A DNA stretch of 64,000 bases from an uncultured Acidobacteriota bacterium (GTDB taxonomy: Bacteria > Acidobacteriota > DATKUA01). Of the stretch, positions 8,577-64,000 are shown one piece after another. The number at the start of each line of letters is the position of its first letter. Position 1 is the first letter of the stretch. The DNA is taken from positions 7,627 through 71,626 of the forward strand of contig CAYOXX010000001.1 in the NCBI GenBank assembly GCA_964408025.1, in the 5' to 3' direction. The notes beneath the pieces were generated by a model. That model was not told the DNA's origin and did no database searches. It saw nothing but the letters and a program-made list of their open reading frames with translations. Both the position numbers and the translations under genes were made by a program.

Positions 8577-8579
8577 TGC

Positions 8580-9081: not shown

Positions 9082-9681
9082 ATGGTTCCGACCGACGCGG
9101 AACTGGTAAGCAGAGCGCGCGGGAATGAGATGGGCGCCTTCCGCCAGCTCGTCGACCGCTACAAGCGCAGGGCCTACTATACCGCCCTTGGCATCGTCGG
9201 TAACCATCACGACGCCGAGGACGTGATGCAGGAGAGTTTCCTGCAGGCGCTCCGCTCGCTCGACCGCTTGCGGAACCCGGGTGGGTTTTGCGCCTGGCTG
9301 CTGCGGATAGCCTACAACAGGTCGATTGATCTGCGCCGTCGCCGCCTCCGCGAGGTCTCGCCCGATGGGAGGGAGGATGGAGTCGAGCTGTTCGACACTA
9401 TCGGGAGCGAGAGCGCGGAGAACAATCCGGAGCGCTCGATGCGTTCCGGCGAGATAGCTGGGCTGGTGATGAGCACGATGGAGAAGCTGCCGGAGAGCCA
9501 GCGCGTCGCCTTCGCGCTCAAGCATATCGGCCAGCTATCGATAAAGGAGATCGCCGCCGCAACGGGGAGCACGGAATCGACGACGAAGACAAATATCTAC
9601 CGCGCCGTGCAGCGCATGCGGAAGGTGCTCTCGCCGCTGAGGATACAAGGGTCAGGAGTGGCAGATGAGCGAGTTTCTTGA
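9082..9681 (+). CDS. ECF-family RNA polymerase sigma factor (sigma-70 regions 2 and 4)
   Basis: Region 2 reads YKRRAYYTALGIVGNHHDAEDVMQESFLQA. Region 4 has an HTH, LSIKEIAAATGSTESTTKTNIYRAVQRMR. GGAGGGAG sits upstream of the ATG at 9082. Confidence 0.8.
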   Translation: MVPTDAELVSRARGNEMGAFRQLVDRYKRRAYYTALGIVGNHHDAEDVMQESFLQALRSLDRLRNPGGFCAWLLRIAYNRSIDLRRRRLREVSPDGREDGVELFDTIGSESAENNPERSMRSGEIAGLVMSTMEKLPESQRVAFALKHIGQLSIKEIAAATGSTESTTKTNIYRAVQRMRKVLSPLRIQGSGVADERVS

Positions 9682-10513
9682 AATTCGAGACCTGATGATA
9701 TCGGCCATCTACGGCGAGGCCGACGAGGAGGAGCTGCGACGGCTCGAGGCCGGGCTGGCGCGGGACGAAAGCTTGGCGGAAGAGTACAGACAGCTACGGG
9801 CTACCGTAGCGGAAGTCGAGGGGGCAGACCTGGCCGGCGACCCCGGGAAGAAGTTTTGGCTCGGCGTCTGGCCGCGGGTCCGCCGGGGCTTGGAGGCCGA
9901 GGGCCGCGCCGAACAACGGCGAATTCTTAGCGGCCGTCTGACCGCGTTCCCCTGGCGGCCCGCTTTGCAATTTGTCTTCGTCGCCATCATGCTCGTAGTC
10001 GGGATCTTCATCGGCAGGTTCCTGGGCGAGCAGGATGTCGAGCCGGCTCAGCCGCCCGCGCCATCGGTAACAGCGGTATCATTTCCCTACGAGGACGAGA
10101 TCGAGGCTCGCGAGCAGGATTTCATCGTCGACGCCACGCTCGCCTCCCTCGAGAGGTCGGAGAGCGTGTTGCAGGAGTTCCTCGATGTGGATCCGGGTCG
10201 CTGGGGCGACCGGGAGGAGGCCTTCTTCAGTAACCTCGAGTCCAGCCACAACCTGTTCGACGAGCTCGCCGAGCTGCGGGGCAGCCTGCGGGGCGGGCGC
10301 TACGGCTTTGTCTCGACCCTGCTCGACGAGCTGGAGATCATCCTTGGGGACATCGCCGGTATCGAGGTTGACGACGATCTAGCCTTCGAGATCGAGCGCC
10401 TGCAGGAGGACATCGCCGACAGGCGCCTGCTGGTCCGCATTCGCGAGATAGAGACCGCGTTTCCGGAGAGCCGATCGGTGCGCACGCTGCCGCTGAGGCC
10501 CGTGAACAGGTGA
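9665..10513 (+). CDS. Putative anti-sigma factor (single-pass membrane protein)
   Basis: It overlaps the sigma-factor stop by 17 nt. It has one predicted TM segment (LQFVFVAIMLVVGIFIGRF) after a ~90 aa cytoplasmic N-domain, the typical ECF partner layout. There is no direct motif proof. Confidence 0.5.
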   Translation: MSEFLEIRDLMISAIYGEADEEELRRLEAGLARDESLAEEYRQLRATVAEVEGADLAGDPGKKFWLGVWPRVRRGLEAEGRAEQRRILSGRLTAFPWRPALQFVFVAIMLVVGIFIGRFLGEQDVEPAQPPAPSVTAVSFPYEDEIEAREQDFIVDATLASLERSESVLQEFLDVDPGRWGDREEAFFSNLESSHNLFDELAELRGSLRGGRYGFVSTLLDELEIILGDIAGIEVDDDLAFEIERLQEDIADRRLLVRIREIETAFPESRSVRTLPLRPVNR

Positions 10514-10517
10514 GAAG

Positions 10518-12107
10518 ATGACAGTGAGAACTGGATTTCTGGCAACAGCCATCATCGCAGCTTGCTGGTCGGTTGTCGCGGCCTCCGACGCGTTAGCGGC
10601 CGAGCAGGACCCCGGCGTGGCCGCCTACCACGAGGCCCGCGCGCTCCTGGTTGAAGGCCGCGTCGCCGAAGCGGCCGCCAGGTTCGAGTCGCTCATCTCC
10701 GCTTACCCCGACAGCAGCCGCGCCGACGACGCCGCCTTCTACCTCGCCTACTGCCGCCACCGGCTCGGCCAAAAGCATTTGGCTTTCACCCAATACGTGA
10801 GCTTTCTCGAACGCTATCCCCGCAGCATACTTGCCCGCCGGGGGCTGATGTTCGCCATCGGCCTGGCCCAGGAATTGCGTCGCGACGACGGCGATATCTA
10901 CGATCAGTTCCTGGCGCGCTACGTTCGCCGTGGACAGAGTTTTACAAGCCGCGTGGAGATCGCCATCAGGCTGGCGCAACTGGGCAACTGGAGCGGCCTG
11001 GACCTGCTCGTGCGGGGACTGGAGCGGGGCAGCGGCATACAGCAGATCGTGATCTCCGACCTGCTGCGTTACCGGCTCGACGAGGAGAGTGTCCGCGGAG
11101 CATTCGAGCGCGCGCTGCGGGGCTCCGCTAACGAGATAGTGCGTATGAAGGCCGCGTCGGCGCTCTCGCGCGTGACCCATCTGGACTCCGTGCGCGAAGC
11201 GATGAGCGAGGCGATGCTGCACGACCGCAACGAGCTCGTCAGGATCAGCGCCGCCGAGGCGCTCTCGCACCACCGGGCGGACAGGGCGGTCCAGAGGGCC
11301 TTCAATAGTGCCCTGGGCAGCGAGCGCGATCCGATTGTGCTGATCAACGTGATCGAATCGCTCGGCGACGGCCTCGCCGACGTGGGAGTCCACGCACAGC
11401 TGCTCAGCAGGCTCAGCAACGAAGAGGATCCTATGATCAGGTTCGCTGTCACCGGGGCACTGCGCGGACACGTCGTCATCGACTCCGACACGCTGCCGGG
11501 GCTGGAGACGTTGGTTCACGCGCCAGAACCACTAGTGCGGCTAAACACGATCCGGGTCCTGGCACAGCGGACAGACGATCCCCAAGTTCGCGTTGTGATC
11601 CTGGAGAGCCTGGAGAACGATCCGAACATAGACGTCAGGATGGCGGCTGTCAGCGTCCTCGCGCCGCACGCGTCCAACGAGCGGGTTCGCCGCGTCCTTG
11701 AGCTGACGGTGGAGAATTCGGAGAGCGTTAGCCTGATAACCTCTTCCATCAGGGCCCTGGGTAGCCAGGCGGCTCACGCGGAAGTGCGCCGCATGCTTGC
11801 GGGGATGCTCAGCGCGCCGCAGCCACCAGTGGTGTCGTACGACCTGGTGAGGGTGCTGGCGCCGTACTCCGACAGGCCGGAGGTTCAGGACGGCTTCATT
11901 TTCCTGCTCGAGAACGCCGAAGACGGCAACCTGAGGCACGTCGTGGCCAGGAGCCTGCGCGCGGTCGAGGGGGAATCGAGGCTCGAGCGGCTCGAGCGCC
12001 TCTACCTCGAAGAAGAGGACGTGGAGCTTGCCGCCCTCTATCTCGAACTGATCGCCAGGGCCGACCCGGAGCGGGGCCGGGCGCTGGGAGAGGGATCGTT
12101 ACGTTAA
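10518..12107 (+). CDS. Secreted HEAT/PBS-lyase-like repeat protein
   Basis: It has a signal peptide (MTVRTGFLATAIIAACWSVVAASDALA). It also has repeated ...R..A..AL..L.D... helical repeats (VRMKAASALSRV, VRISAAEALSHH, VRMAAVSVLAPH), typical of HEAT_2/PBS-lyase repeats. Confidence 0.55.
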   Translation: MTVRTGFLATAIIAACWSVVAASDALAAEQDPGVAAYHEARALLVEGRVAEAAARFESLISAYPDSSRADDAAFYLAYCRHRLGQKHLAFTQYVSFLERYPRSILARRGLMFAIGLAQELRRDDGDIYDQFLARYVRRGQSFTSRVEIAIRLAQLGNWSGLDLLVRGLERGSGIQQIVISDLLRYRLDEESVRGAFERALRGSANEIVRMKAASALSRVTHLDSVREAMSEAMLHDRNELVRISAAEALSHHRADRAVQRAFNSALGSERDPIVLINVIESLGDGLADVGVHAQLLSRLSNEEDPMIRFAVTGALRGHVVIDSDTLPGLETLVHAPEPLVRLNTIRVLAQRTDDPQVRVVILESLENDPNIDVRMAAVSVLAPHASNERVRRVLELTVENSESVSLITSSIRALGSQAAHAEVRRMLAGMLSAPQPPVVSYDLVRVLAPYSDRPEVQDGFIFLLENAEDGNLRHVVARSLRAVEGESRLERLERLYLEEEDVELAALYLELIARADPERGRALGEGSLR

Positions 12108-12131
12108 AAGCGCAGTGGTGGATGAAGCGGT

Positions 12132-13403
12132 CTACGCCTTCGCGCCGCGCATACGCCCGAGCTGCCCTCCCATGGTACCGGTGATTTTCTGCCAGATCGC
12201 CAGGACCGGGCTGGCGATGAAGATGGAGGAGTAGGTGCCGACCAGGATGCCGATAATCAACGTGAAGGCGAAATCGTTGATTACCGAGCCGCCCATGAAG
12301 AATAGGAAGAGTACGACAATCAGCGTTGTCACCGAGGTCAACAGCGTCCTGCCCAGGGTGCTGTTGATGCTGGCGTTGAGAATGCCCTCGTAGTCATCGC
12401 GCGCCTCGCGGCGCCGGATGGTGAGGTTCTCGCGGATGCGGTCGAAGACGACGATTGTGTCGTTGAGCGAGTAGCCGACGATGGTCAACAGGCCGGCAAC
12501 GATCGGCAGGTTGAACTCCCTTCCGGTCATGGAAAAGATGCCGACCGTGATGAGGAGGTCGTGGATGGTGGCGGCGATTGCCGCCACCGAGAACCTGGGG
12601 TTGAAGCGGAACCAGATGTAAGCCAGGATGCCGCCAAGCGAGAAGACGATTGCCCAGACTGCCTGCTCGCCCAGCTCCGCGCCGACGACGGCGCTGACCA
12701 TCTCGGCCCTGATTCTGCTGAAGTTGCCTAGGAACGTGCGCGCGGGGATGAAGTTCCTGAAGTCATCGGCGCGCTGTGCGTGCTCCTCGCGGAAGACCAG
12801 CGAGTCCAGGGCGCGCTCGAGGCCCTCCTCGGTGAAGATGCCGTGTAACTCCGTCTCCCTGTACCTGTCGATGAGCTGCTCGGAGAGGTCGCCGTAGATC
12901 TCGCGGATCTCCTGGGTAGTCAGGTTGGTCCGCCGCAGGGCCAGGGGATCGTTATCCTCCGCGGCCAGCAGTTCCGTCACCCTGTCCTTGCCCTCGAGGT
13001 TGAGGTTCAGCCTGCCCTCCTCGATAAGTGCCAGGTCCGATTCGCTCGACAGGGCGTCAATTATCCGGTTGACGACGTCCTCCTGCGCCGCGGAGCCCGC
13101 GGTCGCGCCATCATCCTCAAGATCCTCGCGCTGGACGCGTATCATCACGTCGCGGTGCTCCGCGTCGGCCTGGATCATGGCGTCGCCGTAGCCGACGGTG
13201 GCCAGATTGGCGCGGATGGCGTTGAGACTCGGCAATTCGTTGAACTTCAACTGGATCAGGTTGCCCCCGGCAAAGTCGATACCCAGGTGGAGGCCGTTTA
13301 CGGCTACGTATATACAGCAGGCGGCTATGAGGAGTAAGGAGAGGCTGATGGCGAGGAACTTTTTGCCGAGGAAGTCGATCTTTGTTTCGCGGAAGAACTG
13401 CAT
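12132..13403 (-). CDS. secF: Protein translocase subunit SecF (with enlarged periplasmic domain)
   Basis: 423 aa. The N-terminus is MQFFRETKIDFLGKKFLAISLSLLLIAA. It has the ...GIDFAGG... SecD/F fold and six C-terminal TMs. It is ~100 aa longer than typical SecF because of an acidic periplasmic insertion. Confidence 0.85.
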   Translation of the reverse strand: MQFFRETKIDFLGKKFLAISLSLLLIAACCIYVAVNGLHLGIDFAGGNLIQLKFNELPSLNAIRANLATVGYGDAMIQADAEHRDVMIRVQREDLEDDGATAGSAAQEDVVNRIIDALSSESDLALIEEGRLNLNLEGKDRVTELLAAEDNDPLALRRTNLTTQEIREIYGDLSEQLIDRYRETELHGIFTEEGLERALDSLVFREEHAQRADDFRNFIPARTFLGNFSRIRAEMVSAVVGAELGEQAVWAIVFSLGGILAYIWFRFNPRFSVAAIAATIHDLLITVGIFSMTGREFNLPIVAGLLTIVGYSLNDTIVVFDRIRENLTIRRREARDDYEGILNASINSTLGRTLLTSVTTLIVVLFLFFMGGSVINDFAFTLIIGILVGTYSSIFIASPVLAIWQKITGTMGGQLGRMRGAKA

Positions 13404-53324: not shown

Positions 53325-53768
53325 CTACCTCCGCGCAAAATAGTCGTCGAGGATGCGGGCGTGGTCGAAGGCGAGCTTGTCGGGCAGTTCTACCCGGCTG
53401 AAAAGGCCGATGCGTGCGGCGTCGTCGCCGGCCCTGGGTTCGCCTTGGGCCGTAGCCGTGAAGACCGTCGAGATCGTGTGCTGCCGCGGATCCCTGTCGG
53501 GATCTGAGTACACACCCAGGAGTCCGGTGAGCTCGACGTGGAGAGATGTCTCTTCCAGCGCTTCCCGCACGGCGGCCGCCTCCGCGGACTCGCCGTAGTC
53601 GATGAAACCGCCCGGCAGTGCCCATCCCGGCGGAGGATTGCGGCGCTCGATGAGCACGATCTTGCGCCCCGCCTTTCCGGGAGCTTCTATCTCGATTACG
53701 ACGTCCACGGTCGGCACGGGATTGCGATAGCGGTCTATTTCCGCTCCGCAACGTGGGCACTTAGGCAT
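53325..53768 (-). CDS. NUDIX hydrolase with N-terminal zinc ribbon
   Basis: The Nudix box reads [24 protein letters not shown]. The N-terminal Zn ribbon reads CPRCGAEI. Confidence 0.8.
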
Positions 53769-53807
53769 GCTGTTCTCCGCCCCTCCCCCCCGGCGGAAGG
53801 ATGATGG

Positions 53808-54224
53808 TTAAGTCCCACCCTCCGGTTGGCACAGCTCTATCAGCACGCCGCCGGTTGACGCGGGGTGCAGGAAGGCGATGAGGGAGCCGTGCGCTCCGGC
53901 CACGGGCTCGCGGTTTATGAGGCGGATTCCGCTTTCGCTGCAGCGCTTGAGCGCAATTTCGATATCGCCAACGCGAAACGCGATGTGGTGGAATCCCTCG
54001 CCCCGCTTGCGGATGTGCTCCGCGATAGGTCCGTCCTGGGTGGTGGATTCCAGCAGCTCGACCGCGGTCTCCCCTACCCTGAACAGCGCGATGCGGGCTT
54101 TCTGGCCGGGAACTTCTTCGGTGCCCAGGTGATCCAAACCGAGGACGTCGCGGTAGAGCGGCATCGCATCGTCGATGCTGGCGACGGCGATGCCGACGTG
54201 ATCTAAACCTGTAATTTGCGGCAT
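53808..54224 (-). CDS. mce: Methylmalonyl-CoA epimerase (VOC/glyoxalase family)
   Basis: MPQITGLDHVGIAVASIDDAMPLYRDVLGL...HHIAFRV...VLIELCQ is the typical MCE pattern. Confidence 0.75.
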   Translation of the reverse strand: MPQITGLDHVGIAVASIDDAMPLYRDVLGLDHLGTEEVPGQKARIALFRVGETAVELLESTTQDGPIAEHIRKRGEGFHHIAFRVGDIEIALKRCSESGIRLINREPVAGAHGSLIAFLHPASTGGVLIELCQPEGGT

Positions 54225-54239
54225 GGAGACCAAGACCGG

Positions 54240-54887
54240 TCAGCGGGGCGGCAGCGTCTTCAGCCTGTGCTTCAGGATGGCCAGGCCAAACGCCAGATTC
54301 TCGTTCTTGATAATCACGCTCTCGGGCACCTCCAGGTTGATGGGAGCGAAGTTCCAGATGGCTTTGATGCCACTCCTGACCATGACATCGGTAACTTCCT
54401 GGGCGCCGGGTGCCGGCAGGGTGAGTATCCCGACAGGGATGCTCTGTTCCTTGATGTACTGGCCGACGGTATTGACGTCCTGGATGACCCGCCCCTGGAT
54501 GTGGGTACCAATTTTGGCCGGGTCGGCGTCGAATACCGCCTTGATGCGAAGCCCGTAGTTGGCGAATCCGCCGTACTGTACAATCGCCGTCCCGAGGTGG
54601 CCGACACCTACCAGTACCGCGTCCTCGACACTGCGGAGGCCGAGGAAATCCTCGATCGTATCCATCAGCTGCGAGATCTCGTAACCGACCTTGGGCTTGC
54701 CGGTGTGGCCTATCGAAGTCAGGTCCTTGCGCACCTGTGTAGCTTCGACGTAAGTCTGCAACGAGAGCTTGAGCGAGGAGACGTGGCGGACGCCCTGCTT
54801 GCGCAGGTAGGATATATACTGGTAATAACGTGGAAGACGCTGGATAGTCTGGACCGAAACCTTCCTTTTTCCACCACCTCGCTTCAT
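54240..54887 (-). CDS. rex: Redox-sensing transcriptional repressor Rex
   Basis: The N-terminal winged helix reads RLPRYYQYISYL. The Rossmann NADH-binding motif reads GVGHLGTA. Confidence 0.85.
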   Translation of the reverse strand: MKRGGGKRKVSVQTIQRLPRYYQYISYLRKQGVRHVSSLKLSLQTYVEATQVRKDLTSIGHTGKPKVGYEISQLMDTIEDFLGLRSVEDAVLVGVGHLGTAIVQYGGFANYGLRIKAVFDADPAKIGTHIQGRVIQDVNTVGQYIKEQSIPVGILTLPAPGAQEVTDVMVRSGIKAIWNFAPINLEVPESVIIKNENLAFGLAILKHRLKTLPPR

Positions 54888-55103
54888 AAGGACCCCCTTG
54901 GCCGCCAAGCACTAGCCTAGCTTAAGGTGTTATATTCGCTACTGAAGTCGCAATTCAAGAGTATAAACGTTTATGAACGGATGTCAAGAAAGATTTTGCT
55001 GGCTATATTTCCGGCTGCAGGGAGCAGTCGGCGGGCTTGAGAATTGCTGTTCGGTAGTTCGCCATCCGAAGCTACGGATACATCTGCTCGCGCGTCGGCT
55101 GAT

Positions 55104-56336
55104 CTAGATGATGCCCAGTGCCTGCAACAGGTAGCGGCCGCTGAGGGCTACCACGACGAGCAGAACGGCCATCGCCACTACATTCATCGGCATAGAATTA
55201 GCCATGTTGCCGAGTCGCCTCCTGTTGTTCAGTGCGACGATGAGGAATACAGCCGCTACCGGGAGTATCACCGCGTTCAGAGCTTGGGCGGCGACTATCA
55301 GGAGTACGGGATTGGCACTTAGCAGGGCGAAGGCCATCCCTACCGCCATGACCGCGATCCAGGTCGTCCTGAAGCGCTTGCTGCGCGAATCCTGAGGCCA
55401 GCCGGCCGCTCCGGACACGGTGTAAGCTGCGGCCAGCGGCGCCGTAATGGACGAGGTCATCCCCGCTGCCCAGAGGCCGACTCCGAAAACCGCCGCGCCG
55501 GCGTCGCCCAGCATGATCCTCAGCGGTTCAGCCACCGAGTCGATCCCGCTGATCCCCTCTCCCTTCATCGCCCCGGCTGCCGTGATCATTATTCCCGCCG
55601 AGACGGCTATGCCGATGCCCACGGCGAACAGAACATCCAGCCGCGCAGTGCGCAGCGCCCCGCGTCCGGTGCCCCACTTTTCCCCCACTATCCTCGAGTG
55701 CAGAAAGAGGTTGTAGGGAACGACGGTCGTTCCGATCAGCGCCAGCACTGTCAGCAGCCCAGCCTCTGGAATGACGGGTGTGAGCAGCCCCGATGCCAGT
55801 TGCGGCACTCGCGGCGCGAAGACTACCGCGGTGACGACAAAGCACATGCTCATAACCGCCACCAGTGCGATCAGAACGCGCTCGATGGCCTTGTAGCGGC
55901 CGGTCCAGAGCAGCACCGCTCCTACGGCGCACTGCAGCAGCGCCCAAGCGCGCAGGTCGCCGCCCATGAGAGCCGAGAGGCCGGCGGCCCCTCCGACGAG
56001 GTTGCCGGCTTGGTAGGCGGCGCAGCCGATCAGTATCGCGCCCGCCACCAGGAAACCGGCTGCGGCACGCAGCCATCTGTTGCCCGAAGATTCACGCAGC
56101 ATCTGCGCTAGGTCCTTGCCGGTCGACAATCCGAGGCGCATCGACATCTCCTGCAGAACCAGCACCGTGATCCCGGCGAAAAGCAGCGTCCACAGCAGCG
56201 CCGGACCGAACGCCGCTCCGGCGGCCGTGCAGGTGATCACGGTGCCCGGTCCGATAAAGGCGGCGGTGATCACCAAGCCTGGACCGAAACGTCCGGCGCG
56301 GGAGCTGTCCTTACCAGCGGTTTCTTCGCTAGCCAT
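55104..56336 (-). CDS. NRAMP-family divalent metal (Mn2+/Fe2+) transporter
   Basis: 410 aa, ~11 TM. The conserved ...AAFIGPGTVITCTAAGA... corresponds to the Nramp DPGN region, and the later ...VVPYNLFLHS... is also conserved. Confidence 0.7.
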   Translation of the reverse strand: MASEETAGKDSSRAGRFGPGLVITAAFIGPGTVITCTAAGAAFGPALLWTLLFAGITVLVLQEMSMRLGLSTGKDLAQMLRESSGNRWLRAAAGFLVAGAILIGCAAYQAGNLVGGAAGLSALMGGDLRAWALLQCAVGAVLLWTGRYKAIERVLIALVAVMSMCFVVTAVVFAPRVPQLASGLLTPVIPEAGLLTVLALIGTTVVPYNLFLHSRIVGEKWGTGRGALRTARLDVLFAVGIGIAVSAGIMITAAGAMKGEGISGIDSVAEPLRIMLGDAGAAVFGVGLWAAGMTSSITAPLAAAYTVSGAAGWPQDSRSKRFRTTWIAVMAVGMAFALLSANPVLLIVAAQALNAVILPVAAVFLIVALNNRRRLGNMANSMPMNVVAMAVLLVVVALSGRYLLQALGII

Positions 56337-56484
56337 AGTAGCCGGCCTCGTTCATCCATCTTACCGACAGAAGCACACTACGTGCGGAGAATGCGGGCCC
56401 CGCTGCCTCAATATGAGTCGGACGCGTCTCTCGGCGAAACCCGATCACAGAGGATAGCCTCGATCCTCGCCCGGGGCAATCGGG

Positions 56485-56519
56485 GAAAAGAGAAAAGAGA
56501 AAAGAGAAAAGAGAAAAGA
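56485..56519. repeat. Heptanucleotide microsatellite (GAAAAGA)x5 within a ~44-nt pure polypurine tract
   Basis: The tract reads GGGGAAAAGAGAAAAGAGAAAAGAGAAAAGAGAAAAGAGAGGAAG. It is non-coding, ~150 nt upstream of the nramp start. It lies on the far side of the long hdr leader. Confidence 0.85.
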
Positions 56520-56668
56520 GAGGAAGCTCTTGTTCGCACCCCCAAGCGCTCGATAGAGCGCTGCTGCGTTGCCGAGGCGCCGTAGCAACGAGACCGGTAT
56601 TCATTTGAAGGTTGGTCGAGAATTTGTGCGAAAAGATGACATATCGGTCGCGTTCTGATATTTCAGGG

Positions 56669-56697
56669 TTGACATATCACGGGATCACGGTTTAAAT
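56669..56697 (+). promoter_or_regulatory. Candidate sigma70 promoter far upstream of hdrCBA
   Basis: A perfect TTGACA, a 17-nt spacer containing a direct repeat of ATCACGG, then TTAAAT. It is ~390 nt upstream of the hdrC GTG, which implies a long 5' leader. Confidence 0.3.
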
Positions 56698-57090
56698 AAG
56701 CAGTGCAGTGGCAATATTGGATGCTGGTGCATAAGGGACTCTAGGCATCACGAAAAGGGATGAAGAGATGGCGCTTCTATCGCGGTTCGATAATCCAGGT
56801 GGATTTGTGATCTCGAGAGAGCGCGTTTAACCTGGTTCTCAGACCACGCGAGCGGCGTTTTAGTTGGCAATAATAGGAAATTCGAGCGCAGCCACATCAG
56901 CGGTGTCGCAGTTGGACGCTTGGGCATATTCCGCTTCGGCTTGCCTAATTAAGGTCAGTGCTTTGTGGGAGCAGCGGTCGAGGAGTTCAATCGTTACTCC
57001 CAAGCTTAACAAGTCGAGCAGCGAAGCTTGCTGCACTGAAGAGAATTCGAGGTTCATTCGCTGATAATCATTAATTGAGAGGAGGCTCGA

Positions 57091-57681
57091 GTGGCTACCG
57101 TCAGGGGAATAAAACTCGAACAGTCGATGAAACTCGACTTCATGGATGAAGTTTACGCCTTGCCGGGCGGTGACAAGGTGAAGGACTGCATCCAGTGCGG
57201 GACATGCAGCGGTAGCTGCCCCGTCGCCGACAGGATGGAGCACTCCCCGCGGCAGATCTTCGCGATGATCCGCGCCGGGATGCGGGAGGAGGTCCTGAGC
57301 AGCAATACCGTTTGGATTTGCGCTTCGTGCTACACCTGCCCGGTGCGCTGCCCCAAGGAGATCAAGATCGCCGACCTCTTCTACTCGATCAAGAGGATCG
57401 CCATTCGCGAGGGCAAGGCTGGCAAGAACAAGGCGGCAGCTCTTAGCTCCAGCTTCGCCAGGCAGGTGAACAAGTACGGCCGCAACAACGAGATCCGCTT
57501 ATTGATCGATTACTTCCTGCGCGCTGACTTCTGGGGCTGGATCAAGCAGCTGCCGATAGGATGGAAGCTGCTGAGCAAGGGCCGCCTGCCGCTGCTGGCC
57601 AAGAAGATCAAGGGTATGCGCCAGGTCAGGACGATAATCAAAAAGGTGCACGCCATGCAGAACAACGGAGGTCCGAGATGA
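57091..57681 (+). CDS. hdrC: Heterodisulfide reductase subunit C (2x[4Fe-4S] ferredoxin-like)
   Basis: It has two Cys motifs, CIQCGTCSGSCP and CASCYTCPVRCP. It has a GTG start with GAGAGGAGG upstream. hdrB overlaps it by 4 nt. Confidence 0.8.
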   Translation: MATVRGIKLEQSMKLDFMDEVYALPGGDKVKDCIQCGTCSGSCPVADRMEHSPRQIFAMIRAGMREEVLSSNTVWICASCYTCPVRCPKEIKIADLFYSIKRIAIREGKAGKNKAAALSSSFARQVNKYGRNNEIRLLIDYFLRADFWGWIKQLPIGWKLLSKGRLPLLAKKIKGMRQVRTIIKKVHAMQNNGGPR

Positions 57682-58547
57682 AGTACACCTACTACCCCGG
57701 TTGCAGCTGCGAGCATTCCGCGAGGATGTACGACGTCTCCACCCGCGCCGTTTTCGAGCACCTGGGGGCGGAGCTGATCGAGCTCGATGACTGGAATTGC
57801 TGCGGCGCCACCGCTTACATGAGCGTCGAGGAGCTGATGAGCTTCTGTATCAGCGCCCGCAACCTGGCGATGGCCGAGGGGCTCGAGCGCGACATGGTGA
57901 CCCCGTGTAGCGGCTGCTACGTCACCCTCAACAAGACCCACAGCTACTACAACGAATACCCCGAGCTGCGCGAGAAGGTAGACGAGACTCTCGATGCCGT
58001 CGGCCTGAAGTACAACGGCACGCAGAGTGTCCGCCACGCTCTCGACCCGCTGGTCAACGACATCGGGCTGGAGGCGATCGCCGAGAAGGTTACCAGGCCT
58101 CTGAAGGGCCTGAAGGTGGCGCCGTATTACGGCTGCCAGATCGTACGCCCCTTCACCGATCTGGACGACCCAGACTATCCGATGATGATGGATCGGTTGC
58201 TTGAGACCTTGGGGGCGACTGTTGTGGCCTTCGAGTACAAGACAAAATGCTGCGGCGGCGCCCAGATGGGCACGAATCAGGATCTGGCATTACGGCTGGT
58301 AAGGAACATCCTGCTATGCGCCCAGAGAGCGGGCGCCGACCTCATCTGTACCACTTGCCCTCTGTGCCAGATGAATCTCGAGGCCTATCAGGGCACCGTC
58401 AACAGGCGCTTCAAGCTCGATTTCAACATTCCGGTTGTCTACTTCACCCAGCTCACCGCCGTCGCCATGGGCCTGCCGGAAAAGGTAGTAATGCCCGAGA
58501 AGCATATCGTGCCTTTCAAGGACAAGCTGGCCGCGGTCGCGGGTTAA
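57678..58547 (+). CDS. hdrB: Heterodisulfide reductase subunit B (two CCG domains)
   Basis: It starts MKYTYYPGCS. The CCG domain motifs are WNCCGATAY, CSGC, YYGCQ, KCCGG and TCPLCQ. Confidence 0.85.
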   Translation: MKYTYYPGCSCEHSARMYDVSTRAVFEHLGAELIELDDWNCCGATAYMSVEELMSFCISARNLAMAEGLERDMVTPCSGCYVTLNKTHSYYNEYPELREKVDETLDAVGLKYNGTQSVRHALDPLVNDIGLEAIAEKVTRPLKGLKVAPYYGCQIVRPFTDLDDPDYPMMMDRLLETLGATVVAFEYKTKCCGGAQMGTNQDLALRLVRNILLCAQRAGADLICTTCPLCQMNLEAYQGTVNRRFKLDFNIPVVYFTQLTAVAMGLPEKVVMPEKHIVPFKDKLAAVAG

Positions 58548-58557
58548 GGAGGATAGC

Positions 58558-59418
58558 ATGGCCGAGGAAACCAAGGACGTGAGCACGCCCCGCATCGGGG
58601 TATACATCTGCCACTGCGGCTCGAACATCGCCAAGCAGGTCGACGTCTTCGGCGTCGCCGACTACGCGTCGACTCTCCCCAACGTCGACATCGCCCGCGA
58701 GTACAAGTTCATGTGCTCCGAACCGGGTCAGGATCTGATCAAGAACGACATCAAGGAGCGCGGCCTGACGCGCGTGGTCGTGGCTGCCTGCAGTCCGCTG
58801 ATGCACGAGCTGACCTTCCGCAAGGCTGCCGAGACCGCCGGCCTCAACCAGTACCTGGTTCAGATCGCCAACATCCGCGAGCAGTGCGCCTGGGTTACAG
58901 TCGACAAGAGCGATGCGACGGTCAAGGCCAAGGCGCTGGTGCACGGCGCCGTCAACAAGGCCACATATCTCGAGCCGCTGCAGACCCGGAAGGTAAAGAT
59001 AAACCCGGCAACGCTTGTGGTCGGCGGCGGCATAGCCGGTATCCAGGCCTCGCTGGACCTGGCCGAGGCCGGCTTCCAGGTCTACCTGGTGGAAAGGGAC
59101 ACGACAATCGGCGGCCAGATGGCCCGCTTCGACAAAACCTTCCCCACACTCGACTGCGCCGCCTGCATCCTGACGCCGAAGATGGTTAGCGTTGCGCATC
59201 GAGAGAAAATCAAGATTTTGGACAGCTCTGAAGTCGAGGACGTGTCAGGCTACATCGGCAACTTCGAGGTCAAGGTGCGTAAGCACCCCCGCTACGTCGA
59301 CGTGGACAAGTGCACGGCCTGCACGGCCTGCTGGACCGCCTGCCCGGCGGTGCGGACGCCGACAAACCGTGAGATCAGGAGGGGAGAGTTCCTCGTCAAG
59401 CAGAAAGTCACGGCCTGA
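58558..59418 (+). CDS. HdrA-like protein, N-terminal 286 aa only (truncated hdrA / possible gene remnant)
   Basis: It has the HdrA-type N-terminal Fe-S domain (IGVYICHCGSNIA), the FAD-binding motif (LVVGGGIAGIQASLDLAEAG...ERDTTIGG) and the first Cys cluster of the inserted ferredoxin domain (CTACTACWTACP). A stop follows. The next gene starts 32 nt later, and there is no continuation in any frame. Confidence 0.55.
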   Translation: MAEETKDVSTPRIGVYICHCGSNIAKQVDVFGVADYASTLPNVDIAREYKFMCSEPGQDLIKNDIKERGLTRVVVAACSPLMHELTFRKAAETAGLNQYLVQIANIREQCAWVTVDKSDATVKAKALVHGAVNKATYLEPLQTRKVKINPATLVVGGGIAGIQASLDLAEAGFQVYLVERDTTIGGQMARFDKTFPTLDCAACILTPKMVSVAHREKIKILDSSEVEDVSGYIGNFEVKVRKHPRYVDVDKCTACTACWTACPAVRTPTNREIRRGEFLVKQKVTA

Positions 59419-59450
59419 GGCTCGGGCGGAGCGTCTTCGGGGAGATTGCC

Positions 59451-59798
59451 ATGAGCCTACGGCTCGAGGAGGTTAAAGAGATTCTGGAGTGCGAGGTGGT
59501 CGTCGGCGAGGACCAGCTGGATCTCAGCGTCGATCTGGGCTGCGCCGCGGACCTCATGAGCGACGTGCTGGCCTTCAGCCAATCAGGGTCGCTGTTGCTT
59601 ACCGGCCTGGCGAACGAGCAGGCGGTGCGGACAGCCGACATCGCGGAGGTCAAGGCGATAGTGTTCGTACGCGGCAAGAAACCGAACTCGGAAGCCATCA
59701 AGCTGGCCGAGCGCCGGAGGATACCCCTGCTGTGCACGAAGTTCTACATGTACGAGGCCGCGGGGCGCTTATACGCAAGCAATCTCAAAAGTCGGTAG
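59451..59798 (+). CDS. DRTGG-domain small protein (paralog 1) of the sensory-hydrogenase module
   Basis: 115 aa. ...DLMSDVLAFSQSGSLLLTGLANEQAVRTADIAEVKAIVFVRGKKP...IPLL.T resembles the DRTGG domain found N-terminal in Pta and CBS-DRTGG proteins. Confidence 0.45.
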   Translation: MSLRLEEVKEILECEVVVGEDQLDLSVDLGCAADLMSDVLAFSQSGSLLLTGLANEQAVRTADIAEVKAIVFVRGKKPNSEAIKLAERRRIPLLCTKFYMYEAAGRLYASNLKSR

Positions 59799-59808
59799 GT
59801 AGTAAGGC

Positions 59809-60261
59809 ATGGGTAGCGAGGCCCAGCTAACGCAGGAATTTGAGATAGAAGGAGGCAACCTTTCAAGGGCCGGCGATGTTTCGATGCATATCAAGTCGAC
59901 ACTCAGGGCCATCGGCGTGCCGTCGGATTCGATCCGCCGGGCGTCGATCGCCTGCTACGAAGCGGAGATGAACGTGGTGATGTACGCCAGGCGTGGCACG
60001 TTGTGCTTCTCCATCTCGCCGCAACGCATCAGCGTCGAGGTGGCCGACGAAGGTGAAGGCATCCCCGACATCGAGCTGGCCATGCAGGAAGGATACTCGA
60101 CAGCCTCTGAAGAAATACGTGAGTTGGGCTTCGGCGCCGGCATGGGGCTGCCCAACATCAAGAAGAACACCGACGAGATGGAGCTCTCATCCGTTGTCGA
60201 CCAGGGAACCGTGCTGAAGTTCAATATCAACCTTAACAAGGCGGGTGCCTCAGGTGGGTGA
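59809..60261 (+). CDS. GHKL-type ATPase, anti-sigma regulatory factor (RsbW/SpoIIAB-like Ser/Thr kinase) family
   Basis: 150 aa. The N box reads EAEMNVVMYA. The G1 and G2 boxes read ADEGEGIPD and GFGAGMGL. Its size and motifs match partner-switching kinases. Confidence 0.6.
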   Translation: MGSEAQLTQEFEIEGGNLSRAGDVSMHIKSTLRAIGVPSDSIRRASIACYEAEMNVVMYARRGTLCFSISPQRISVEVADEGEGIPDIELAMQEGYSTASEEIRELGFGAGMGLPNIKKNTDEMELSSVVDQGTVLKFNINLNKAGASGG

Positions 60262-61579
60262 TTTTATCCACTCGATCCGTTTCGACAGCCAGCGCTGCAA
60301 GGGCAGAATGGCGTGCATGCGCGTCTGCCCCACCGAGGCGATCCGGGTGCGCAACGGCCACGCCTCCATGCTGGAAGACCGCTGCATCGACTGCGGCGAG
60401 TGCCTGACGATCTGCCCGTCCGGCGCCGTGGTGCCGCTGACGAACTCCTTCGTTGATTTCTCCCGCTTCCGCCACACGATCGTAATCCCGACGCCGTCGT
60501 TTTACGTCCAGTTCGGCCTCAACGTGGCACCTGAGACGCTCGTCCGGGGCTTGCTGGAGATAGGCTTCGACAGCTTCTACGACGTATCGCTAGTCTGCGA
60601 AGCAACCGGGATGGCGATAAGCGAATTTCTCGATCGTTACGACGGTCCCCTACCCCTCATCACGCCGTTCTGCCCAACCGTGGTGCGGCTCATGCAGTTG
60701 AAATTCCCGGACATCTCCGGATTGCTTATGCCTATCGAGTCGCCGATGGAAACGGCCGCCCTTGAGGCGAAAGAGAAAGTTGCCGCGCAGACCGGATTGC
60801 CCCTGGAGGACATCGGTACTATCTACCTGACGCCCTGTCCGGTGAAGATGATCGCCATCCAGCACCATCCGCGCAAGGCCTATTCCTACATTGACGGCGC
60901 AATCGCAATTTCCGATATATATCAGCCGCTGCTTGCGGCACTGCAAAAGCTCCCCCATAACGATGAAGAGAAACGGGAAAAGGTAGAGCTTTCGGCAGCC
61001 GGCCTGGGCTGGGGAAGACCGAATGGTCTGACGCGCAGCCTTGGCAGCGAGGATATACTCTTCGTGTCGGGACTGAACAACGTAATCAGCATCTTCGAAG
61101 AGATCGAGAGGGGGCACCTCAAGGACATCAAGATGGTGGAGTGCCATACATGCTGGGGTGGCTGTATCGGTGGCAGCCTTCTGATTGAGAACTCTTACGT
61201 GTCGCGCCACCGGATGCAGGCTATGCAGGCAAGGCTCGGGTGGGAACCGAAGGTAGATCGCGAGGACGTATCCAAGCGCTTCAAAGAAGGCTACTACACG
61301 GTAGACCAGGCACTACCCACCAGCCCTTTCAAGCCCCTTGACAAAGACTTTGCCAAGGCGATCGAGAAGATGAAGCAGATAGAGGAGCTTCATCAGATTC
61401 TCCCGGGCATCGATTGCGGCGTGTGCGGGGCCCCGACCTGCCAGGCTTTCGCGGAGGACGTGGTGCTGGGGCGCGCAGAGGTAAGCGACTGCGTTTTCGA
61501 GCAGCGCAAGCAGATCGAGGGCTTGCTGCGGCAGTCGCTCGACTGCCTGGCGGGGCAGCTCGATTCAAAGGAAGGCTGA
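60245..61579 (+). CDS. Sensory-type [FeFe]-hydrogenase homolog (HydS-like): N-terminal 2x[4Fe-4S] ferredoxin + H-cluster domain with non-canonical motifs + C-terminal Cys-rich tail
   Basis: The ferredoxin domain has CKGRMACMRVCP and CIDCGECLTICP. The H-domain motifs are TPFCP (canonical L1 is TSCCP), TPCPVK (canonical L2 is MPCxxK) and ECHTCWGGCIGG (canonical L3 is ExMACxxGCxxGGGQP). The C-terminus has CGVCGAPTC...SDC. It overlaps the upstream GHKL gene by ~17 nt. Confidence 0.75.
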   Translation: MPQVGDFIHSIRFDSQRCKGRMACMRVCPTEAIRVRNGHASMLEDRCIDCGECLTICPSGAVVPLTNSFVDFSRFRHTIVIPTPSFYVQFGLNVAPETLVRGLLEIGFDSFYDVSLVCEATGMAISEFLDRYDGPLPLITPFCPTVVRLMQLKFPDISGLLMPIESPMETAALEAKEKVAAQTGLPLEDIGTIYLTPCPVKMIAIQHHPRKAYSYIDGAIAISDIYQPLLAALQKLPHNDEEKREKVELSAAGLGWGRPNGLTRSLGSEDILFVSGLNNVISIFEEIERGHLKDIKMVECHTCWGGCIGGSLLIENSYVSRHRMQAMQARLGWEPKVDREDVSKRFKEGYYTVDQALPTSPFKPLDKDFAKAIEKMKQIEELHQILPGIDCGVCGAPTCQAFAEDVVLGRAEVSDCVFEQRKQIEGLLRQSLDCLAGQLDSKEG

Positions 61580-61581
61580 CG

Positions 61582-61923
61582 ATGCTATTGCGACAGCTAG
61601 TCGAGGCGCTGGAGCTGGAGGTCCTGACCTGCCGGCAGAAGCTGGAACGGGAGGTGACCGCCGGCTACGCAAGCGACATGCTCAGCTTCGTGATGGCCAA
61701 CGCCACGGAGGGCTCGGTATGGGTTACGGTGCAGGTGCACGAGAACATCGTGGCCGTGGCGATGCTGAGAAGCCTGGCGGCAATCCTCCTGGTGGGCGAT
61801 CGCAGCCCGGAGCAGTCGACCTTGGATAAAGCCGAACAGGAGGAAGTCTGCGTGCTCCGCAGCCGCCTGTCGGCATTCGAGGTCGTGGGCAGAATGTACG
61901 AGGCTGGAATCCGGGGAGGCTGA
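61582..61923 (+). CDS. DRTGG-like small protein (paralog 2)
   Basis: 113 aa. ...DMLSFVMANATEGSVWVTVQVHENIVAVAMLRSLAAILLVGDRSP... is similar in pattern to the protein at 59451. It starts 3 nt after the HydS-like stop. Confidence 0.4.
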   Translation: MLLRQLVEALELEVLTCRQKLEREVTAGYASDMLSFVMANATEGSVWVTVQVHENIVAVAMLRSLAAILLVGDRSPEQSTLDKAEQEEVCVLRSRLSAFEVVGRMYEAGIRGG

Positions 61924-62660
61924 TGCTGAGTGCCTACAGCGCCGACCTGCACATCCACACCTGCCTCTCGCCGTGCGGGGAGCTGGAGATGAGCCCGCTA
62001 AGTGTAGCCGAGCGGGCGGCCAGCGTCGGCCTGGACATGATCGCCATCTGCGACCACAACAGCGCGGAGAACGCGGGAGCAGTGATGAAGGCGGCCGGCC
62101 AGGGCAAGGTAACCGTCATCGCCGGCATGGAAATAACCACCAGCGAGGAGGTCCACGTCCTCGGTCTCTTCCCCACCCTGCGCAGCGCTCTGGCCGCGCA
62201 GGAGGTGGTGTTCGAGCACCTCGAGGGGGAGAACGACGAGGAGGCTTTCGGAATGCAGGTGATCGCCGACGAGCGGGACGAAGTAGTCGGCTTCAATACG
62301 AGGCTGTTGATCGGCGCCACCGACCTGGATTACAGCAAGGTGGTGGCCCTGATCCGCAAGCACGGCGGGCTGGCGATCGCTTCGCACGTCGACCGCGACG
62401 GCTTCGGGCTCATCGGTCGCCTCGGCTTCATTCCGGAAGAGCCGCCGCTGGACGCCGCTGAGCTGTCGTGCGACGGGTCGGCGGACCAGGTAACGGAGTC
62501 GTGCCTCGGATCGAAGCCGCCTATGCTCATTCGCAGCTCGGACGCCCACCGGCTCGACGAGATAGGAGAGGGACGTTGCCTGTTGCTGGCTGCGGAGGCT
62601 TCGTTCGACGAGCTGCGCTCGGCCCTGCACGGCGAGGGCGGCCGCCGAGTGGACATATGA
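61923..62660 (+). CDS. PHP-domain phosphoesterase
   Basis: ADLHIHTCLSPCG...MIAICDHNS...ASHVDRD is the PHP His/Asp metal-binding pattern. Its ATG overlaps the upstream stop (TGATG). Confidence 0.65.
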   Translation: MLSAYSADLHIHTCLSPCGELEMSPLSVAERAASVGLDMIAICDHNSAENAGAVMKAAGQGKVTVIAGMEITTSEEVHVLGLFPTLRSALAAQEVVFEHLEGENDEEAFGMQVIADERDEVVGFNTRLLIGATDLDYSKVVALIRKHGGLAIASHVDRDGFGLIGRLGFIPEEPPLDAAELSCDGSADQVTESCLGSKPPMLIRSSDAHRLDEIGEGRCLLLAAEASFDELRSALHGEGGRRVDI

Positions 62661-62668
62661 GGTGAAGC

Positions 62669-63253
62669 GTGGAAGACCTGTCTCTGCACATCCTCGACGT
62701 AGCCGAGAACGGCATCGCAGCCGACGCCGATTTTGTGCGCATATCGCTGGACGAAGACAGCAGGGACGACAGACTTACTCTCGAGATCGCCGACAACGGC
62801 TCTGGCATGGACCCGGAGCTGCTGCGCTCGGTTACCTCGCCGTTCACGACGACCAGGACCTCGCGCAACGTAGGTATGGGCCTGCCGATGCTGGCCATGT
62901 CCGCGGAGAGCGCGGACGGGGGGCTGAGCATCGATTCCGTCCCCGGCGAGGGGACAACAGTGCGAGCGACGTTCCGGCTCGGACACATCGACCGCATTCC
63001 GATTGGCGATCTGAGTCAGACCGTCAGGACGTTGATCGTCGGGAACGAAGACGTGGACTTCGTGTTCGAGTACCGCAAGAACGGCAGGGAGTTCTCGCTG
63101 GACACCCGCGAACTCCGGAGGGCCTCCGGCGGCAAGCCGTTCTGGAAGCCCGAGGTAATGAGGACCCTGCGTGAGCTTATCGACGAGGGCATGCGCGAAC
63201 TCGACGGCATGGCCGCGAAGGTTGCCTCGGGGAAGGACGTTGAGGATAGGTAG
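62669..63253 (+). CDS. GHKL/HATPase_c-domain ATP-binding protein (second kinase-like ATPase)
   Basis: 194 aa. The G1, G2 and G3 boxes read IADNGSGMD, GMGLPM and GEGTTV. It has a GTG start with a GAGGTGAAG RBS. Confidence 0.6.
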   Translation: MEDLSLHILDVAENGIAADADFVRISLDEDSRDDRLTLEIADNGSGMDPELLRSVTSPFTTTRTSRNVGMGLPMLAMSAESADGGLSIDSVPGEGTTVRATFRLGHIDRIPIGDLSQTVRTLIVGNEDVDFVFEYRKNGREFSLDTRELRRASGGKPFWKPEVMRTLRELIDEGMRELDGMAAKVASGKDVEDR

Positions 63254-63335
63254 TAGGCAAAGAAGCGGCATCCGCCCACGCGACGCAACGAGGGATGGAC
63301 GCCGCATGAGAATGCCGAATCAGTTACGGGGGTAA

Positions 63336-63794
63336 ATGGTTATGGCGACCAGCAAAGTAGAGGAGATCATCTCCAAATACTCAGGAGGAGAACAGGATAT
63401 CATCGCGATCCTCCAGGATGTACAGGATGAGTACAACTACATCCCCAAGGACGTCCTGGCCGAAATAACGGGTGCACTCCAGATTCCCATGAGCCGGGCA
63501 TATTCCCTGGCGACCTTCTTCAGTGCTTTCAGTCTCGAGCCGAAGGGTAAGTATCCGATCAACGTCTGCATGGGAACAGCCTGCCACGTTCAGGGTGCCC
63601 CCAGGATTCTCGATAAGCTCGAGCGCGATCTGAGTATCAAGAAGGGGCAGACAACATCCGACGGGCTTTTCAGCCTCGACGAGGTTCACTGCCTTGGCTG
63701 CTGCGGTCTGGCGCCGGTTATCACAGTTGGCGAGGACCTCTATGGCAAGGTGAAGCACGGGCAACTGAAGAAGATTCTGAAGAAGTACCAGTAG
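63336..63794 (+). CDS. hydC: NuoE-like [2Fe-2S] thioredoxin-fold subunit of a NADH-dependent/bifurcating [FeFe]-hydrogenase (HydC/HndA type)
   Basis: 152 aa. The Cys motif reads CMGTACHV...CLGCCGLAP. ILQDVQDEYNYIPKDVL matches the 24-kDa NuoE family. Confidence 0.8.
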   Translation: MVMATSKVEEIISKYSGGEQDIIAILQDVQDEYNYIPKDVLAEITGALQIPMSRAYSLATFFSAFSLEPKGKYPINVCMGTACHVQGAPRILDKLERDLSIKKGQTTSDGLFSLDEVHCLGCCGLAPVITVGEDLYGKVKHGQLKKILKKYQ

Positions 63795-63850
63795 CATTCT
63801 GAAGCTATTTCCGGTGGTGAGTACCCCGGAACGCGAAAGGAGAGGAGATC

Positions 63851-64000
63851 GTGGGAAAGCTAAAAGTATCCGATCTCGAAAAGATCAAAGATAAAATAAA
63901 GCGTGCTACGAAGCTGCGGGAAGGCAAGGGCAGTGCACGCGTTACGGTGCACATGGGCACCTGCGGCATCGCAGCGGGGTCGCGAAACATCATGAGTGCG
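63851..64000 (+). CDS. hydB: NuoF-like hydrogenase beta subunit (HydB/HndC type), N-terminal fragment; continues past window end
   Basis: GTG start with an AAAGGAGAGGAG RBS. The N-terminal 2Fe-2S thioredoxin-like domain motif reads ARVTVHMGTCGIAAGSR. Confidence 0.65.
   Translation, partial: MGKLKVSDLEKIKDKIKRATKLREGKGSARVTVHMGTCGIAAGSRNIMSA

Follow-up and report, generated by a model that had tools for sequence, protein, structure and literature searches.

The window analysed here is the whole 64,000-nucleotide stretch of contig CAYOXX010000001.1 from an uncultured Acidobacteriota bacterium. Near its end the window carries a short gene for subunit A of heterodisulfide reductase (Hdr), here called hdrA-N. 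The sequence-only reading of the window had described an hdrA cut off at about 286 amino acids (aa), and the open reading frame (ORF) at 58558-59418 does encode 286 aa and ends in TGA. That reading left open whether the gene is the remnant of a rearrangement or a naturally short HdrA-like protein. The results showed that the short form is natural and conserved. It probably does not stand alone, as the C-terminal piece of HdrA is encoded 6.7 kb further along the operon, as part of a 587-aa fusion protein. The hdr genes of the window and the features of hdrA-N are listed below.

57091-57681, plus strand: hdrC-like gene, 196 aa (alternative start 57127); Pfam Fer4_8/Fer4_17; NCBIfam CoB_CoM_SS_C, E 2.6e-26.
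57678-58547, plus strand: hdrB-like gene, 289 aa, two CCG domains; Pfam CCG, E 6.9e-27, in two stretches; NCBIfam CoB_CoM_SS_B, E 4.6e-63.
58558-59418, plus strand: hdrA-N, probable N-terminal piece of a split HdrA, 286 aa, ending in TGA.
59023-59040, plus strand: GGGIAG dinucleotide-binding motif of the flavin adenine dinucleotide (FAD) domain, residues 156-161; G156, G158 and G161 invariant in 66 family members.
59311-59346, plus strand: lone ferredoxin motif C252-x2-C255-x2-C258-x3-C262-P263; all four Cys invariant.
59347-59418, plus strand: C-terminal tail, residues 264-286, with the TGA stop; consensus A-x-R-x-P-x2-R-x-I-x2-G-x2-L-V.

The hdrB-like gene shares 4 nt with hdrC and stops 10 nt short of hdrA-N. 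As in an HdrABC operon, hdrB (two CCG domains) and hdrC (2x[4Fe-4S]) adjoin hdrA-N. The order hdrC-hdrB-hdrA had been considered unusual; it is instead the order in most loci recovered with the hdrA-N protein, and hdrC precedes hdrB and hdrA-N in the split-form loci with upstream DNA.

The hdrA-N protein consists of HdrA residues 1 to about 265, a 23-aa tail and the stop. It matched positions 1-256 of the 777 positions of the NCBIfam HdrA2 model (E 1.5e-108), and residues 1-266 of each of the solved HdrA chains 8rvu (E 5e-97) and 5odc (E 4e-93). The reported N-terminal Fe-S domain, GGGIAG motif (residues 156-161) and first Cys motif (residues 252-262) are all there. Residues 10-140 form the N-terminal [4Fe-4S] domain, whose four Cys (C18, C20, C53 and C78) are invariant in the family. 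Only the first segment of the FAD fold (HdrA 145-236) is present, and the second lies on the 587-aa fusion protein. By itself, hdrA-N thus lacks the complete thioredoxin-reductase-like FAD domain that an HdrA of about 650 aa has on a single chain, and it takes both polypeptides to supply every segment of that domain. The NCBIfam HdrA score was also well under the cut-off (364 versus 1100 bits). The motif C252-C262 is the first motif of the HdrA inserted ferredoxin domain; the matching second motif is on the downstream fusion. The tail is specific to the family and is not present in canonical HdrA; P268 does not vary, and at least 90% of members keep R271 and G276. AlphaFold 2 (AF2) modelling of hdrA-N alone gave a predicted local distance difference test score (pLDDT) above 90 for the N-terminal domain and below 50 at residues 188-201 and 245-266, and it predicted a beta-hairpin at tail residues 271-283. 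The low-scoring regions would fit a fragment that needs a partner.

The remainder of HdrA was searched for by tblastn with nine C-terminal halves of full-length HdrA, and none was found in any frame of the window. Only short ferredoxin-motif matches were obtained, the best (E 4e-6) inside a gene for a sensory-hydrogenase-like protein (HydS-like). In-frame readthrough past the TGA of hdrA-N gives 11 codons and then another TGA. The earlier statement that no downstream frame continues hdrA is therefore true of the window. Two other contigs extend past the window end: L087 (490,727 bp) is 100% identical to the window over 10,665 nt (53336-64000), and L090 is 100% identical over 15,443 nt. A window coordinate equals the L087 coordinate plus 53335. 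The genes from nuoE onward are as follows; all after the first are taken from L087, those with coordinates in window-equivalent positions.

63336-63794, plus strand: nuoE/hydC/bfuC-like [2Fe-2S] gene, first of an NAD(H)/ferredoxin module and last in the window; Pfam 2Fe-2S_thioredx, E 9e-50.
63851-64234: 2Fe-2S ferredoxin, 127 aa.
64367-66124: nuoF/bfuB-like gene, 585 aa.
66134-67897: BfuA-N::HdrA-C fusion, 587 aa.
After the fusion: mvhD (Pfam FlpD), 152 aa.
After mvhD: mvhG (Pfam Oxidored_q6), 319 aa.
After mvhG: mvhA (Pfam NiFeSe_Hases/HoxH), 487 aa.
Further downstream of mvhA: a hypothetical protein, a C13 peptidase and hycI.

The fusion protein has two parts. Residues 1 to about 190 are an N-terminal FeS domain of the BfuA/HydA type, and residues from about 190 to 587 correspond to HdrA 240-650. 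In L007, the closest genome relative, fusion residues 166-585 matched positions 239-640 of the NCBIfam HdrA2 model (E 9e-128), and residues 2-183 matched the first 204 positions of HydA of group A6 (NADH-dependent [FeFe] hydrogenases; E 6e-41, NCBIfam) as well as the N-termini of HoxU and NuoG. In L087, residues 162-585 matched 5odc HdrA 240-649 (E 6e-104), and residues 2-192 matched WorA/BfuA of 9mqx (E 9e-40), identified as WorA via PMC12318220. The BfuA N-terminal FeS feature is therefore present on the fusion, by its matches to group A6 HydA and WorA. The Fe-S motifs follow in the order [2Fe-2S] motif, BfuA ferredoxin motifs a and b, linker, and HdrA motif 2. By reading of the sequence, the BfuA-type part has one [2Fe-2S] and two [4Fe-4S] sites and lacks the His-ligated cluster motif. 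E356 and K409 (M. thermolithotrophicus numbering) are the residues for recognising a bifurcating HdrA flavin (PMC9430772). Both, as numbered in 5odc, are kept in the L087 fusion as the E and K of 'LEFERM' and 'CCMYALKF', outside the ORF in the window. Among the best 120 matches to the fusion, 118 were full-length, all of 582-624 aa with 100% coverage. They are named "4Fe-4S binding protein" by NCBI and "heterodisulfide reductase subunit A" by JGI.

The genes around the fusion supply the other modules. In Pfam, the NuoF-like protein of L007 (82% identical to that of L087) has an N-terminal 2Fe-2S thioredoxin-like domain, a flavin mononucleotide (FMN) domain and a C-terminal 2x[4Fe-4S] domain, and the L087 protein agrees for FMN, NADH_4Fe-4S and the C-terminal Fer4. 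By its domains, the NuoF-like subunit has the HydB/BfuB architecture. The product of 63336-63794 is a NuoE-like [2Fe-2S] subunit like BfuC of the Bfu/HydABC family. The gene set of a group 3c [NiFe] hydrogenase MvhADG (mvhD, mvhG and mvhA near hdr genes) is complete and is conserved in L009, L039, L056, L011 and L081.

The same arrangement recurred in other genomes. The C-terminal HdrA residues (about 390) were located downstream by tblastn in every split-form locus with enough downstream DNA, with 41-69% identity to full-length forms; the search proposed by the sequence-only reading thus recovered the missing half. The order hdrC-hdrB-hdrA_N-[cassette]-nuoE-(fdx)-nuoF-bfuA_N::hdrA_C was found in L087, L007, L073, L001, L010, L009, L039, L056 and L022, and L003 and L005 match it as far as their sequence reaches. 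mvhD-mvhG(-mvhA) directly follows the fusion, except in L022, where only an mvhD match was found, about 5 kb further. By the record of the metagenome-assembled genome (MAG), the locus type occurs in Ignavibacteriales, Phycisphaerae, Planctomycetaceae, Sumerlaeota, KSB1, Anaerolineae and Pseudomonadota. By the source's name for the homologous protein, Acidobacteriota, Aminicenantes, Zixibacteria and Eisenbacteria can be added.

The best 120 matches to hdrA-N among 5.8 billion proteins were used to define its family. Of these, 119 are 275-314 aa long with 60-95% identity and share the tail; their sources label them as Acidobacteriota, Ignavibacteriales and others, across many phyla. The tail and all ten Cys of hdrA-N are conserved in the family. 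A search against representatives of clusters at 50% identity returned a mix of fragments and long fusion proteins and gave no family size. The ratio of nonsynonymous to synonymous substitution rates (dN/dS) was 0.12 against two 81%-identical relatives. This indicates that hdrA-N is under strong purifying selection. An identical protein is encoded by 14 independently assembled contigs, and family members end at the position of the hdrA-N stop in TAA, TAG or TGA.

The history of the two halves was followed in neighbour-joining (NJ) trees with bootstrap, built on 255-346 columns. The split loci were placed congruently in the N-half and C-half trees, and pairwise distances of the two halves over the split loci correlated with r 0.61. 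L009 and the unsplit L012 were sisters in both trees (92/100 bootstraps in the C-half tree), L010 grouped with L011 and L081, and L022 was placed among archaeal HdrA. Single-chain HdrA proteins of about 835 aa were found in L011 (9989-12499, Phycisphaeraceae MAG) and L081 (about 10001-12496, Sumerlaeota MAG). In these, about 110 aa of low-complexity linker connect the N-half and its tail to the BfuA 2x[4Fe-4S] domain, and the C-half comes last; nuoEF are absent and mvhDGA follow directly. By this layout they look like a re-fusion of the split gene. The unsplit HdrA of L012 (4262-6262, delta proteobacterium MAG; 666 aa) keeps the signature CW..CPA.R of the split N-half and VH...TLGP..AIY.PT.Q of the fusion C-half. 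Because both half-signatures are kept, it is probably also a re-fusion, and it may derive from a split ancestor with loss of nuoEF and the BfuA domain.

The site of the split is shared with another HdrA form. In long HdrA chains (1110-1180 aa), the first ferredoxin motif runs directly into a GltD/NfnB-like module that binds NAD(P)H. Such loci include L013, L017, L020, L023, L028, L030, L033, L040, L042, L044-L046, L054, L060 and L075, and they are interleaved with the split forms in both trees. Since the re-fusions and the GltD inserts share this site, the inserted ferredoxin domain appears to be a hotspot for grafting modules of electron input or output.

Other variants of hdrA were also observed. 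L022 (about 2693-9715, MAG labelled Halobacteria archaeon) has a full-length archaeal-type hdrA directly upstream of the split hdrA. Both of its split halves group with archaeal HdrA and its N-half tail lacks the bacterial hairpin motif; the L022 split may be an independent fission. Many Dehalococcoidia/Chloroflexota hdrA genes (L014, L019, L026, L034-L037, L043, L051, L061, L066 and L080) have an in-frame TGA at about codon 202 followed by about 458 codons. This TGA aligns with C200 (TLDCAAC) of the window protein and, from that position, probably encodes selenocysteine. The split-form N-half of L057 (5893-6735, Anaerolineae MAG) shares this TGA, with 85 codons after it.

Between the two halves of hdrA, the window carries a regulatory cassette of sensory-hydrogenase, kinase and phosphatase type with the following genes.

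59451-59798, plus strand: DRTGG-domain gene (Pfam DRTGG), first of an optional regulatory insert.
59809-60261, plus strand: HATPase_c_2 (kinase/anti-sigma-like) gene of the insert, Pfam.
60245-61579, plus strand: sensory-type [FeFe]-hydrogenase-like (HydS-like) gene with Fer4, Fe_hyd_lg_C (E 2e-25) and PF04060 FeS (E 6e-14).
61582-61923, plus strand: second DRTGG-domain gene, Pfam.
61923-62660, plus strand: PHP-domain gene, Pfam PHP and PHP_C.
62669-63253, plus strand: HATPase_c gene, Pfam E 1e-15, last of the insert.

The ATG of the DRTGG gene at 59451 leaves the gap of 32 nt after hdrA-N that had been reported. The C-terminal end of the HydS-like protein is the PF04060 FeS domain. Read by eye, this protein has TPFCP, TPCPVK and ECHTCWGGCIGG where the catalytic H-cluster motifs would be expected from their canonical forms. 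The insert is present in L003-L008, L010, L015 and L073 and reduced in L001 to the HydS-like gene and one HATPase gene. In L009, L022, L039, L056 and L057 it is missing between hdrA-N and nuoE, and nuoE directly follows the cut; in L057 the cassette sits upstream of hdrA_N. Because the same cut occurs in loci without the module there, the cut is independent of the sensory-hydrogenase module, to which the sequence-only reading had tied it. In the lineage of the window the module merely occupies the gap between the hdrA halves. The usual company of group C3 sensory [FeFe] hydrogenases is a gene cluster of BfuABC-type hydrogenase (PMC11406978). Compared with that setting, the cassette here stands beside a BfuBC core without an [FeFe] catalytic subunit.

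The split, the fusion, the strict synteny, the purifying selection and the congruent evolution of the halves are observations. Beyond them, we believe that hdrA-N is probably the N-terminal piece of a split HdrA which reassembles with the 587-aa fusion protein into an Mvh-Hdr-Bfu enzyme. The two halves would reassemble into one HdrA fold. In a ferredoxin-type domain, each cluster is bound by three Cys of one motif and a fourth from the other motif. Given this topology, the N-half with its single motif needs a second motif from its partner, whose Cys would complete the set in trans and give inter-subunit [4Fe-4S] clusters. In canonical Mvh-Hdr, H2 electrons pass via MvhD to the HdrA FAD and are bifurcated to HdrBC and ferredoxin (PMC9304861, PMC9430772), and the inserted ferredoxin domain of HdrA is the ferredoxin-binding site (PMC9430772). 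In Bfu enzymes, NAD(H) and ferredoxin bind at the FMN/FeS core of BfuBC, and BfuA-type clusters supply this core (PMC9304861, PMC12318220). In the enzyme proposed here, the low-potential output site that serves free ferredoxin in canonical HdrA would instead be connected, by way of the BfuA-type clusters, with the FMN site of BfuBC. H2, NAD(H), ferredoxin and, at HdrBC, a disulfide would all be linked in a single Mvh-Hdr(split)-BfuBC complex. It would contain two bifurcation centres, the FAD of HdrA and, in series with it, the FMN/FeS site of BfuBC. Because the NuoF-like subunit has the BfuB domain set, one such complex is the most likely arrangement, and coupled NAD(H)/ferredoxin bifurcation by the BfuBC module of the locus is predicted.

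Other explanations of the short gene were considered. If the sensory-hydrogenase module had been inserted into an hdr locus, a dead 5' fragment of hdrA would have been left, and it is true that the ORF stops 32 nt ahead of the DRTGG gene with no continuing frame in the window. However, the length and tail are kept in at least 119 homologues from many phyla, dN/dS is 0.12, the C-half is intact downstream, and five loci without a regulatory module there (L009, L022, L039, L056 and L057) show the same cut. HdrA proteins as short as this one thus form a large conserved family with intact syntenic neighbours in many phyla. That is the outcome which the sequence-only reading had itself named as refuting its proposal, and a rearrangement junction or pseudogene remnant is very unlikely. 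Even less credence is due to a full-length hdrA masked by an assembly or sequencing error or by recoding of TGA (selenocysteine, readthrough). The stop is a TGA, HdrA is a known selenoprotein family, and several Dehalococcoidia loci continue for about 458 codons after the in-frame TGA at about codon 202. In the window, however, readthrough soon meets a second TGA, and the selenocysteine position of the other HdrA proteins aligns with C200, not with the protein end. Relatives stop at this position with any of TAA, TAG and TGA, so neither recoding nor a faulty assembly accounts for the stop, and the 14 identical contigs from independent assemblies also speak against a frameshift or misassembly at about 59.4 kb, for which the sequence-only reading had proposed a check. 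Taken together, the family length and tail, the selection, the identical contigs and the mixed stops exclude pseudogene, assembly error and recoding.

Two further explanations accept the short protein as functional. It may be a stand-alone FeS adaptor, for example from HdrBC to a hydrogenase or NADH module, that binds no FAD and is not paired with an HdrA C-half. The N-terminal [4Fe-4S] domain is confidently predicted by itself by AF2, and the pairing of the halves is deduced indirectly. Against this, two segments of the FAD fold, GxGxxG and FDKTFPTLDCAAC, do not vary in the family, though they are just part of the FAD site. The segment boundaries of hdrA-N and the fusion are complementary, the halves evolve congruently, and L011, L081 and probably L012 are natural re-fusions. 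By the established topology, the lone CxxCxxCxxxCP motif would also fall short of four ligands for a ferredoxin-type cluster. We regard such an adaptor as improbable. The main functional rival is that the halves do reassemble and the NuoEF-like proteins are a plain, non-bifurcating NAD(H) dehydrogenase, leaving the HdrA FAD as the one bifurcation centre. The product would be an NADH- and/or H2-dependent heterodisulfide reductase like FlxABCD-HdrABC. NADH-linked Hdr enzymes of that kind are known (FlxABCD-HdrABC, cited in PMC9430772), and a NuoEF module and the HdrA signature residues are present. However, the extra N-terminal 2Fe-2S and C-terminal 2x[4Fe-4S] domains of the NuoF-like protein point to the bifurcating BfuBC core as described in PMC9304861, and we judge a plain dehydrogenase to be rather unlikely.

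Several points weigh against the reassembled Mvh-Hdr-Bfu enzyme. The window itself holds only hdrC, hdrB, hdrA-N, the regulatory cassette and nuoE, and the remainder comes from the identical contigs. The physical pairing of the two HdrA halves is a prediction from their sequences. On the fusion, motif b and motif 2 are collinear with a complete inserted ferredoxin domain; with this arrangement the partner motif of the N-half is ambiguous and may be motif 2 or motif a. A single origin of the split had no support, with split forms monophyletic in 0/100 NJ bootstraps, though NJ on 255-346 columns is a weak test of this. Because the split forms are non-monophyletic, the trees do not tell several fissions from several re-fusions. 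Overall, the gene architecture is well supported, and the protein complex and its chemistry are predictions yet to be proven.

The proposed Mvh-Hdr-Bfu enzyme was compared with known systems. As in the MvhADG-HdrABC complexes of methanogens (5odc, 8rvu), MvhD, MvhG and MvhA are encoded in the same cluster. In contrast to these, HdrA here is divided over two polypeptides, with the break within the inserted ferredoxin domain. The C-half is preceded in its chain by a BfuA-type FeS domain, and the genes for the halves are separated by NuoE/NuoF-like genes. Among known systems, the nearest is the class II benzoyl-CoA reductase BamBCDEFGHI (Bam-Bfu; bioRxiv 10.64898/2026.04.10.717634; PMC9304861), which has a HydBC/BfuBC-type module (BamGH with BfuA-like BamI) and an HdrA-type bifurcating flavoprotein (BamE) in one complex. 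Bam joins its modules through the MvhD-like adaptor BamF, has a fused HdrA dimer as BamE, and has a tungsten enzyme as its output. In the present loci HdrA is split, and its C-half carries the BfuA-like domain covalently attached at the inserted ferredoxin domain. HdrBC and a [NiFe] hydrogenase serve as outputs, with no BamB/AOR gene in the loci compared.

The fusion also resembles the short-BfuA 'plug' members of the Bfu family, such as WorABCSL (9mqx; PMC12318220), whose WorA its residues 2-192 match. With [2Fe-2S] and 2x[4Fe-4S] but no His-ligated motif, it corresponds to the A1/A2/A4-only BfuA type of PMC9304861; compared with the WorABCSL type, the third module on BfuA is the HdrA C-half. 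The survey of the Bfu family has no Hdr-type member apart from Bam-Bfu (PMC9304861). The HdrA forms with a GltD/NfnB insert (1110-1180 aa; L020, L017, L042) are alike in that HdrA has received a module for handling NAD(P)H at the point where the split form is cut. Unlike the split form, they are single unsplit polypeptides, and in place of a BfuABC-type module they carry a FAD/NAD(P)H domain of the GltD type. The HdrA of Moorella thermoacetica (PMC9430772) is given for comparison with these forms. No description of a split or short HdrA or of an Hdr-NuoEF (Hdr-Bfu) combination was found in the literature within reach, subscription papers lying outside it.

Upstream of hdrC lie three divergent genes.

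53808-54233, minus strand: glyoxalase.
54240-54908, minus strand: Rex-like regulator (Put_DNA-bind_N and CoA_binding).
55104-56336, minus strand: Nramp transporter.

These neighbours recur in the 81%-identical relatives L003 and L004. Prompted by the Rex-like gene, we searched for the Rex operator (TTGTGAAnnnnTTCACAA, at most 3 mismatches); one match was found elsewhere in the window, which does not exceed chance level, and none upstream of hdrC. A 750-bp intergenic region (56337-57090) separates the Nramp gene from hdrC; a minus-strand ORF of 65 aa is called in it on other contigs (L087 3525-3722), and a simple scan of the region found no promoter-like site. A promoter and terminator scan of 56300-64000 gave nothing above the shuffled expectation and is neutral on a single transcription unit. 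At the other end of the locus, L087 17588-19322 (window-equivalent about 70923-72657) encodes a 133-aa hypothetical protein and a 430-aa peptidase C13 (legumain-like) between mvhA and hycI, a hydrogenase maturation protease. By reading, both proteins have hydrophobic N-termini.

The locus type matters for annotation. The halves are now named "FAD-dependent oxidoreductase" and "4Fe-4S binding protein", or both "HdrA". By Pfam domains alone the fusion gene resembles the N-terminus of HydA, so the loci may be read as HdrABC beside a bifurcating [FeFe] hydrogenase; alternatively, they may pass as plain MvhADG/HdrABC, as in PMC7509429. Such misreading would misstate the predicted hydrogen and NADH metabolism of the host organisms. 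With a break that falls within a two-cluster ferredoxin domain, and with natural re-fusions at hand, the locus type offers a ready system for studying how HdrA acquires grafted modules. More tentatively, we propose a widespread four-substrate enzyme, in which a split HdrA would be held together by shared-ligand [4Fe-4S] clusters, with two serial bifurcation centres and an optional regulatory sensory [FeFe]-hydrogenase cassette; we hold this full form to be possible rather than probable. According to the 2026 Bam preprint, two different bifurcation modules in one complex were unreported before it (bioRxiv 10.64898/2026.04.10.717634). If the proposal is true, the locus type would be a second, differently wired example of dual bifurcation, probably with a broader distribution among many phyla of uncultured anaerobes.

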